DNA of 8,652 nt from a virus (lineage: Duplodnaviria > Heunggongvirae > Uroviricota > Caudoviricetes), in the IMG/VR virus record IMGVR_UViG_2778261644_000004. One strand, given 5' to 3'. The position numbers and the translations under genes were made by a program. The notes beneath the pieces were generated by a model. It had not been told where the DNA came from. It saw only the letters and a program-made list of their open reading frames with translations, and did no database searches. Positions 682-3,600 of this stretch are shown here, in pieces; position 1 is the stretch's first letter, and each line of letters opens with the position of its first letter.

Positions 682-3600
682 TCAGCTGATACTGATACCT
701 GCTGTGGATTTCTTCATCACCACAACCAGCAGATCGCTGATACTGGTTGTTGGTGTCCAGTTATTCGCTCCTGATGAAGATACGGTGAATGTCAGTGTCA
801 GTGTCCCCTGTCCGGCAGGCATATCTATAACTGAGGAAAATACGCCCTGAGCATCCGTCGTGGACTGATTAAAAATCTCCTGACCATTGCGGGTCACTCT
901 TAACCGGCAGGTTGAATACCAGTATGACTGTTGGTTATTACTGTTGAAATTCTCATGCTTACCACCGCGGAATAACACTGGCGGTATCATGACCTGCCGG
1001 TCAAATTTCTGATCATCACTGATTCTTACCGTGATGGTGCCGCTGGCATAACTGTTCGTGCGGGGGAAAGACTTGCTGACCGTTTTGACAATATCGCCTT
1101 CAATCTGATTGGCTGACAGTTTCCCCTTAATCTGACAGTTCTCATTAATCGTGACATTGTTGAGCGTCCCGGAGTTCGCATTCACACTGCCACTGATATC
1201 CGCATTTTTAGCAGTCAGCTTTCCGTCCGGTGTCAGGGAAAATGCCGGTGGATTTCCACCACTGGTAATGGTGGGGGCCGTCAGGCGTTTCAGGAACACG
1301 TCGTTCATGAATATCTGGTTGCCCTGCGCCACAAACATCGGCGTTTCATTCCCGTTTGCCGGGTCAATAAACGCGATACGGTTAGCGGCAACCAGAAACT
1401 GGCTCAGTTTGCCTTCCTCTGTATCCTCCATGCTGAGGCCAAGCCCCGCGACATAATGCTTACCGTCTTCGGTCTGCTCAATTTTGACGCCCCACATGGC
1501 ATTCCATTTATCGTTAGCGTCCTTCCACTCTTTCGAAAACTCCTCCAGTCTGCTGGCGTTATCCTCCGTCAGGTCGACTTTTTCCAGCAGCTCCTTGCCG
1601 AGATGGGATTCGGTTATCTGGCCTTTGAAAAAATCCAGGTAACCTTCCGCATCATCGCTCGCCCGACCGACAGCCTCCACGAATGCCGATTTGCCGACGG
1701 TGTTCACACTGCGAACGTAAAAATAATAATCATGGCCCGGCTTAATATTGATACTGGCAGCTATCCAGTACAGCGCCGTGCCAAGATAGCGCGCGCTGGT
1801 TTCAACCTGCCTGATATCGGTAATCCGCTTTTCCGAGAACCAGAACTCAAACTGTACCGTCGGGTCATAAAACGCAAGATGCGGCGTTGCAGTTATCTGA
1901 AAATAGCCCGGCGTCAGCTCAATCCGCGACGGCGCTGCCGGTGCGGCGATCCGGAACGATACCGATGCCGGCTCGCCCTGCTGCCCCCGGGCATTTGCCG
2001 CACGGACCGTCAGCGTATAACGCCCCAGTGCCAGTTGTGTGAAGCGGTATGTGGTCTCCGTCGTCCTGGCCGTGCTGACCAGCCGCTCACTGCCGTCGTC
2101 CGCTGTTACGGTCAGACGGAGCAGGAAGCTCACGCCCTTCACCACCTTCGGTGTGTCCCATCGCGCCAGCACCTGATATTCCCCGCTGTCTGCAGTGACT
2201 TCTGCGGTCAGGTGCTGCACCGCTGGCGGCGTGACACCGTTCACCGTTCCGCTCTGGTCGCCGTCAAAGTGCGCCCCGTTATCCACGATGGCTTCTTTTT
2301 CCGGTACATGCTGCACGGCAGTGATGGCATACGTACCGTCATCGTTCTCACGGATACTCACACAGCGGAACAGGCGCTGGCGCAGCGTCGGCAGCTTCAG
2401 CCCCCACACGCTGTACTCGGCAACGCCGTCAGGAACCCGGCTCACTTTCACCTTCACGCCGTCGGTGACGGACTGGACCTCCACACTGACCGGATTACCC
2501 TCACCGTCAACCAGGCTTATCAGCGTGGTGCCGGAGGATGGCAGCGTGATTTCACGGTCGAGCGTCAGTGTCCGCGTCTGGCTGTTCACTGCCAGCACAC
2601 GCCCACCGATGCTGATCCCCGCATAGTCATCATCACAGATTTCAATGACATCGCCCGGTACATGGCGAAGCCCTTCAGCACCCACGCTGAAGTCCACGGT
2701 CTGCGTTTCCAGCAGCTCCGTTTTAATCAGCCACAGCCCGGCTCGGTGTGCCTGCCCCCGGCTGGTACAGCCAAAGGCATCCATTTTCGTGACATTACGA
2801 CCGTAACGGGCAATGGCCTGCGTATCTTCAACAAGCTCTGTCGCCGTCTCCCAGCCGTTATCCGGGTCAATCCAGTTCACCTCAACGGCATTATGGCGGT
2901 CCTTCAGGGCGCTGAAGCTGTAGCGGAACGGCGCGCCATCATCCGGCATCACCACATTACTGCGGTTATAGGTCCACACCTTATCCGACGGTCGGTCCTG
3001 CACGAACGTCAGCGTCTGCCCGTTCCATACCGGCATACAGCGCATCGCAGAGCAGAAATCACTGAGCACATCCCACGCCTTGCGCTGTGTGGTCAGGTAC
3101 GCATTACAGGCGATGCGCGGCTCCGTGCCGCCAAAGCCGTCCGGCACCGACTGGTCGCAGTACTGGCCGATGACATACAGCGCCCATTTATCCACATCCG
3201 CCGCACCAAGACGTTTTCCCATGCCGTAGCGCGGATGGGTCAGCATATCCCACAGACACCAGGCCATGTTGTTGCTGTATGCTGGCTTAAACGTTCCGTC
3301 CCAGATACCGCTGTATTGCCGCGTCTGCGGGTTATAGTTCGACGGCACCTGCAGAATACGCCCGCGCAGATGATAATTACGGCTCACCTGCTGGCTGCCG
3401 AACTGCTCCGAATCCACCTGTACGCCGACCAGTGCCGTGTTCGGGTAGCACTGTTTCACATCGATGATTTCGGTGTATGACGACCAGAGCGTTTTGTTCT
3501 GCAGCTGGTCTGTGGTGCTGTCCGGCGTCATCCTGCGCATCCGGATATTAAACGGGCGCGGCGGCAGGTTATCCACCACCACCGAGGCCAGATACTGCGA

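Follow-up and report, generated by a model that had tools for sequence, protein, structure and literature searches.

The tail-tip gene J found in the 8,652-nt window (the whole stretch of DNA that was analyzed) is, with high probability, a natural mosaic in which a lambda-type body (amino acids 1-972) is joined to an Ig-like receptor-binding domain (RBD; amino acids 973-1132) that, as read from its sequence, should bind OmpC and not LamB. J is 97% identical to lambda gpJ at the amino acid level over residues 1-972, and this value amounts to 44% over residues 973-1132. The exchanged receptor-binding module is an allele of the A8/phi330 type; it is encoded by positions 685-1164 of the minus strand, has a GC content of 46.9%, and starts at the break in identity. 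A first-pass annotation of this DNA, made from its letters without any tools, had already proposed an exchanged receptor-binding domain at the 3' end of J, and in doing so it had correctly identified a host-range module swap: identity to lambda falls here from 97 to 44%, and the module is shared with divergent J bodies.

J (positions 682-4080, minus strand) is an intact ORF of 1132 codons plus a stop codon and encodes the tip attachment protein, or central tail fiber. It is part of a lambdoid tail-tip operon with the order H-M-L-K-I-J-lom, which is co-linear with positions 10542-19585 of lambda, as judged from ORFs and Pfam matches. All of its genes are carried by the minus strand. Genes I (4141-4788), K (4686-5429), L (5435-6133), and M (6133-6471) are intact ORFs; the tape-measure gene H (6464 to about 8590) lacks the part coding for its N-terminus; and lom (16-615) encodes an Ail/Lom outer-membrane protein (Pfam Ail_Lom, E = 2e-121). 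Positioned between the stop codon of J and the start of lom is a terminator-like hairpin with a T-run (645-664, minus strand), an 8-bp, GC-rich element followed by TTTTTTATT; a terminator is annotated at the equivalent position in the phage 434 record. The J protein matches six Pfam families above their curated cut-offs (FNIII-A_GpJ, Phage-tail_3, Ig_J, Ig_J_second, Phage_Tail_Tip, and Ig_GpJ_C), arranged in the lambda order, and thus represents a lambda-type tip attachment protein. It matches lambda gpJ in length and is 86.7% identical to it overall in an ungapped comparison.

The top phage record for the window as a whole is Salmonella phage SPF_0923 (97.8% over positions 1-8590), while the similarity to the lambda-like coliphages 434, mEp460, the PhiR series, and 2H10 is restricted to positions 1-6155. 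Among complete E. coli genomes, the best match reached 97.6% over positions 1-8590. Genes M and H (6133-8590) form a larger mosaic block of low GC content (43.8%, vs. 58.6% for M plus H of lambda); their products are 42% (M) and 25% (H) identical to those of lambda at the amino acid level, compared with 94% for the adjacent L and 97% for K. Nucleotide similarity to lambda and to 434 ends at position 6155, a junction that is sharper than that of the RBD. The product of gene I, which is 79% identical to lambda I next to K (97%) and L (94%), marks one more place at which the operon diverges locally.

The window closes with 62 nt (8591-8652; TGAACCGCCCCGGGTTTCCTGGAGAG...) that adjoin the H ORF and constitute the terminal part of an IS3-family element; the corresponding RefSeq matches are IS3 family or IS1203-like transposases inserted in the tape-measure gene. 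The Pfam TMP_2 match of H begins at profile position 112, so that its N-terminus is missing. Since this part of H is lost at the IS element, the prophage is probably defective, and it may make no particles. It is a real possibility, although we lean against it, that the OmpC-type RBD is without function here and that J is kept, next to a tape-measure gene broken by an IS element, as a stored allele for recombination with incoming phages. The IS end, the late start of the TMP_2 match, and the annotation of similar IS-disrupted H genes as partial in RefSeq genomes all speak for such a role; on the other side, the ORFs of J, lom, I, K, L, and M are intact, the remainder of H could lie past the IS element and outside of the window, and the insertion may be recent. 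This alternative concerns the present use of the RBD only and leaves its identification uncontradicted.

Just upstream of the divergent module lies a conserved linker of 16 amino acids (positions 1165-1212, minus strand; amino acids 957-972). A nucleotide alignment revealed that the stretch coding for this linker is nearly identical in lambda, 434, phi330, PhiR30_1, phi21, and 4C10, and that the earliest nucleotide differences between J and lambda occur at codons 973-974, directly past the linker. Ungapped identity to lambda gpJ, recorded per 50 codons, stays at 0.90-1.00 up to amino acid 975 and then takes values of 0.80, 0.40, 0.12, and 0.04. The drop from more than 95% to less than 50% identity occurs within about 15 codons; the nucleotide divergence is saturated, and indels are present. 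The Pfam tail-tip fiber domain of J spans amino acids 845-972, and the Ig-like C-terminal RBD proper (Pfam PF12421, Ig_GpJ_C; positions 685-1059, minus strand; amino acids 1008-1132) begins at amino acid 1008; hence, the junction of the module lies at a domain boundary. The PF12421 match, at the extreme C-terminus of J, had an E-value of 4.8e-36 and a score of 124.2 bits against a cut-off of 26.2.

When the last 182 amino acids of J were aligned with lambda gpJ by gapped BLASTP, 51% identity was found, with the gaps falling into three loops. Each loop carries one indel (-4, +5, and -1 residues relative to lambda). Lambda has a four-residue insertion at the site of the loop TNSY (positions 1048-1059; amino acids 1008-1011); the hairpin at positions 925-954 (amino acids 1043-1052) contains five residues inserted relative to lambda; and the hairpin ANNWTP (positions 751-768; amino acids 1105-1110) adjoins a one-residue gap, with all three sites on the minus strand. 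By its sequence, the RBD is thus not a lambda-type (LamB-binding) allele, given 44% identity and indels in three loops, nor is it an allele of the 434 type, to which it is 45% identical at the amino acid level and which gave no blastn match over positions 721-1123. The statement of the first-pass annotation that the N-terminal part of about 950 amino acids stays lambda-like is borne out by identities of 97.6% over amino acids 1-700 and 95.6% over amino acids 701-970. Its placement of the module at the C-terminus of J was right as well, although the last 160 codons are divergent and not 170. The alignment by which it had proposed to check the exchange came out in its favor, with the C-terminal part far below the body in identity to lambda gpJ (44% vs. 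more than 95%) and the drop located at codon 973.

The receptor of this allele can be read from two experimentally characterized relatives. When the last 249 amino acids of J were compared with the PDB by phmmer, a sequence with 100% identity was obtained, chain 9wca_J (also present in 9wcb), which is designated 'A8 gpJ 713'; the next matches were the lambda gpJ chains 8xcj, 8xck, and 8iyk with E-values of about 1e-94 (8xcj_Z, 2e-94). Ge and colleagues applied the name gpJ713 to a truncated gpJ that begins at residue 713 (PMC11101478). A literature search for 9WCA, 9WCB, or a gpJ-OmpC complex found nothing, and both entries are known here by chain name and sequence. A8 is one of two gpJ chimeras described by Brödel et al. 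(2024, Nature 632:877; PMC11338833), in which C-terminal parts of gpJ from natural E. coli phages were placed on lambda gpJ with the aim of using OmpC. The recipients used to score delivery were cells lacking lamB and cells lacking both lamB and ompC that had been supplied with ompC variants; in the double-deletion background, delivery by A8 required added ompC, and 21 of the 23 OmpC variants allowed efficient delivery by A8, by 1A2, or by both (PMC11338833). The 'GpJ A8' DNA sequence given in the supplement of that study (PMC11338833) yielded a 96% alignment with the 3' end of J in the window; the mismatches have for the most part the appearance of OCR artifacts (gaps and misread bases) and not of real variation. 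Divergence of the A8 chimera from lambda starts within the same linker stretch as that of J in the window.

The second relative is phage phi330, which neither lyses nor forms plaques on the Keio ompC deletion strain and whose plaques are restored by Plac-ompC (PMC12502783). Its RBD differs from that of J in the window at only two positions, both located in one loop (TSTY vs. TNSY) that corresponds to T918-Y921 in the phi330 numbering (PMC12502783); we computed an offset of 90 by which phi330 residue numbers are converted into those of J in the window. In an AlphaFold3 model of the phi330-OmpC complex, a hairpin formed by E953-S962 reaches into the OmpC barrel, while A1015-P1020 contacts its rim (PMC12502783). 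These segments are equivalent to amino acids 1043-1052 and 1105-1110 of J, two of the three sites at which indels relative to lambda occur, and the hairpin at amino acids 1043-1052 is accordingly predicted to point into the OmpC barrel. With an RBD identical to that of A8 and 98.8% identical to that of phi330, J in the window almost certainly has OmpC as its receptor. The earlier suggestion that the receptor is other than that of lambda agrees with these experiments, in which identical or near-identical RBDs (A8 and phi330) use OmpC rather than LamB. OmpC is used by phage 434, too (PMC11101478).

We had considered phage phi21 as a native OmpC user, and this assignment was rejected, since its native receptor is LamB and OmpC use was gained by a single mutation in J (PMC11336670). 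Phi21 thus provides a rival to, and not support for, OmpC binding. Its RBD is 82% identical and nevertheless uses LamB, so that receptor choice is labile in this allele family and identity thresholds matter. As the next-closest characterized allele, it raises the question of whether the module in the window might be a phi21-like, LamB-binding allele with the same receptor as lambda despite its divergence. We consider this highly improbable: A8, with its identical RBD, delivers into lamB-deleted cells in an ompC-dependent manner (PMC11338833); phi330 (98.8%) no longer forms any plaques on a strain from which ompC is deleted but lamB is not (PMC12502783); and the alignment with phi21 shows 29 differences in 162 positions, some of them within or next to the loops.

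That an OmpC-type module was acquired by a lambda-type J is most apparent when identity to J in the window is followed separately through amino acids 1-700, 701-970, and 971-1132 of its relatives. The three values are 97.6, 95.6, and 44.3% for lambda and 98.3, 95.6, and 45.3% for 434; for PhiR30_1, they are 97.7, 97.0, and 100%, and for 4C10, 97.9, 95.2, and 82.7%. The pattern is reversed in phi330 (63.7, 58.7, and 98.8%), while phi21 yields 97.9, 66.8, and 82.1%. A J body that is only about 60% identical, combined with a near-identical RBD in phi330, demonstrates horizontal exchange of the module. The central fiber segment of phi21 J (aligned to amino acids 701-970; 67%, next to 98% for the N-terminal 700 amino acids) indicates that the RBD is not the only exchangeable segment of J.

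The blastn comparisons gave a corresponding picture at the nucleotide level. Lambda matched over positions 1124-6155 (92% for the J body) and, within the lom region, over 1-143 and 418-476, and there was no similarity to it across positions 477-1123. Phage 434 matched over positions 1-720 at 95% (lom, the spacer, and the last 13 or so codons of J) and over 1124-6155 at 92%, without similarity across 721-1123. As the match to 434 resumes at position 720, the cassette replaced relative to this phage measures about 400 nt and is internal to the 3' end of J. In phi330, a single co-linear match extends over positions 1-1469 at 92.7% and is followed by 76% identity; the nucleotide values for this phage are 92.7-94% in the module and 76% in the body. 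The breakpoints vary from phage to phage, with the junction near 1469-1627 for phi330 and near 1160 for lambda. Both an abrupt change in identity and an incongruent similarity of the module and its flanks were thus found, as is characteristic of a mosaic junction. The lom gene of the window is an allele of the 434/phi330 type (95 and 93% nucleotide identity, respectively) whose product is 47% identical to lambda Lom, and it travels together with the RBD module in phi330 (co-linear match 1-1469).

Base composition was the starting point of the first-pass annotation, which had set line counts of 38-48% GC at the 3' end of J against 65% in the body of the gene. An exact calculation gave 47.4% for positions 682-1200 and 46.9% for the divergent module (685-1164). 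The low GC content of the 3' end and the 65% of line 2401-2460 were hence correctly observed; the nine 60-nt lines of positions 661-1200, however, range from 38.3 to 55.0%, and no single step from 65 to 45% exists. The contrast was overstated because the part of J chosen for comparison with the 3' end was the one richest in GC. Within J, the module has the lowest GC content of any 486-nt window (51.2% or more in all others, with a mean of 58.2%), and its value of 0.469 differs from that of the remainder of J (0.578) with z = -4.45; in comparison with the adjacent 736 nt (1165-1900; 0.524), z is -1.90. GC3 is lower in the module as well, at 0.544 compared with 0.692 in the rest of J (lambda: 0.613 in the RBD vs. 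0.697).

The step near position 1161 is a small one, and the main step lies elsewhere. The strongest single GC change-point in J is located at about position 1905, where the GC content changes from 59.7 to 50.0% toward the 3' end (LLR 14.9). This step, at about codon 725, lies at the boundary between the two Ig-like domains. In lambda J, too, the best change-point is found at the equivalent of about 1905 (LLR 6.0), so that the step is a property of the gene family and not specific to this allele. The second change-point, at position 1161, coincides with the break in identity to lambda and is weak (from 52.2 to 46.7% GC; LLR 1.76). The composition signal is real but modest, and marginal on its own. 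We therefore rejected the drop in GC content alone as proof of a swap, since the 1161 change-point has little strength and lambda shares the dominant one at 1905. Taken by itself, the step in composition at the junction is of marginal statistical significance; what carries the argument for an exchange is the break in sequence identity. Least probable of all is a low GC content that merely reflects the amino acid composition of the RBD or a local constraint, with divergence having arisen vertically through rapid, host-selected change and without any exchange: the lambda RBD does lie somewhat below the remainder of lambda J in GC content (0.544 vs. 0.576; z = -1.3), and RBDs evolve fast in co-culture experiments (PMC11336670), but vertical change fits poorly with so steep a loss of identity within about 15 codons, with saturated nucleotides and indels, with the presence of the same module at 94-99.7% nucleotide identity on J bodies (phi330) that are only 76% identical to J in the window, and with a GC3 that declines together with GC.

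Horizontal acquisition of an OmpC-type module would most likely have proceeded by homologous recombination. One crossover may have taken place in the shared linker (positions 1165-1212), a likely homologous-recombination junction, and the other at or past the 3' end of J; the latter placement is suggested by the similarity to 434 that resumes in the last 13 or so codons of J and by the fact that lom and the spacer differ from lambda as well. The resulting protein would carry the RBD at the end of a body made up of hub domains, FNIII/Ig domains, a helical shaft, and a beta-prism fiber. By analogy to the lambda gpJ-LamB structures (PMC11101478), the trimeric RBD would dock on the porin trimer with its bottom loops in or onto the porin, and the binding signal would pass up the beta-prism fiber and open the tail tip; the three indel-bearing loops are the likely determinants of specificity. 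The lower GC and GC3 values of the module would fit a cassette that circulates among lambdoid phages apart from a J body of higher GC content, since the four non-lambda RBD alleles that were compared all lie at 46-48% and all J bodies at 57-58.5%. A more far-reaching proposal strikes us as doubtful, namely that the low-GC lambdoid RBD cassettes constitute one separate pool that is shuffled via the invariant linker as a dedicated recombination junction, and that the natural J might also differ from A8 in the OmpC variants it accepts or in a second receptor, through the difference of about 3% in its body or through the partner Lom or side fibers.

This allele is very common and belongs to the standard set of J alleles in E. 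coli prophages. Matches to the 486-nt module, usually annotated as gpJ, were obtained in 2,716 of 5,426 complete E. coli genomes; among the matching records, 518 are at 99% identity or above and 995 at 95-99% (about 1,500 at 95% or above). Within phage records, it is found at 94-97% identity in many Stx1a- and Stx2a-converting phages. A literature search on the PhiR30_1/PhiR29 phage series yielded nothing relevant. The feature as such is already known, through receptor genetics, an engineered chimera joined at this very junction, and structures solved for the identical domain; as the receptor for the allele is known, no discovery is needed. What follows for annotation is that J should be labeled as an OmpC-type (A8/phi330-class) tail tip and not as a LamB-type one. 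The allele is also of practical value, having already been used for retargeting lambda particles that serve in base editing in the gut.

Set against the characterized systems, J in the window resembles the A8 chimera most closely: both have a lambda-type body and a junction at the same conserved linker, and their last 249 amino acids are 100% identical (PDB chain). A8, however, is an engineered fusion onto the J of Ur-lambda, whereas J in the window is natural; in contrast to A8, about 3% of the residues in its body deviate from lambda, and M, H, and lom of the prophage are not lambda-like. Phi330 (vB_EcoS_phi330; PV189401) shares the RBD (98.8% amino acid identity) and a downstream lom of the same type, and its dependence on OmpC is proven by knockout and complementation; yet its J body is only about 59-64% identical to that of the window at the amino acid level (76% at the nucleotide level), and phi330 is an Stx2a-converting Pankowvirus without a lambda-like tail operon.

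The lambda gpJ-LamB system (PDB 8xcj, 8xck, and 8iyk; PMC11101478) has the same protein length, domain order, and Ig-like RBD fold family (PF12421), but identity of its RBD is down to 44%, three loops carry indels, and its receptor is LamB instead of the OmpC-type specificity proposed for J in the window. Phage 434 (OL657226) is similar in its J body (96-98% identity) and lom (95% at the nucleotide level) and likewise has OmpC as its receptor, whereas its RBD is a different allele (45% amino acid identity) that is five residues longer; because the two RBDs belong to different alleles, OmpC recognition is reached by a distinct sequence class. Phi21 J (OL657228), finally, has an RBD of the same allele family (82% amino acid identity, with the last 25 residues identical) and contrasts with J in the window in its native receptor, LamB, and in its central fiber (amino acids 701-970), which is only 67% identical.
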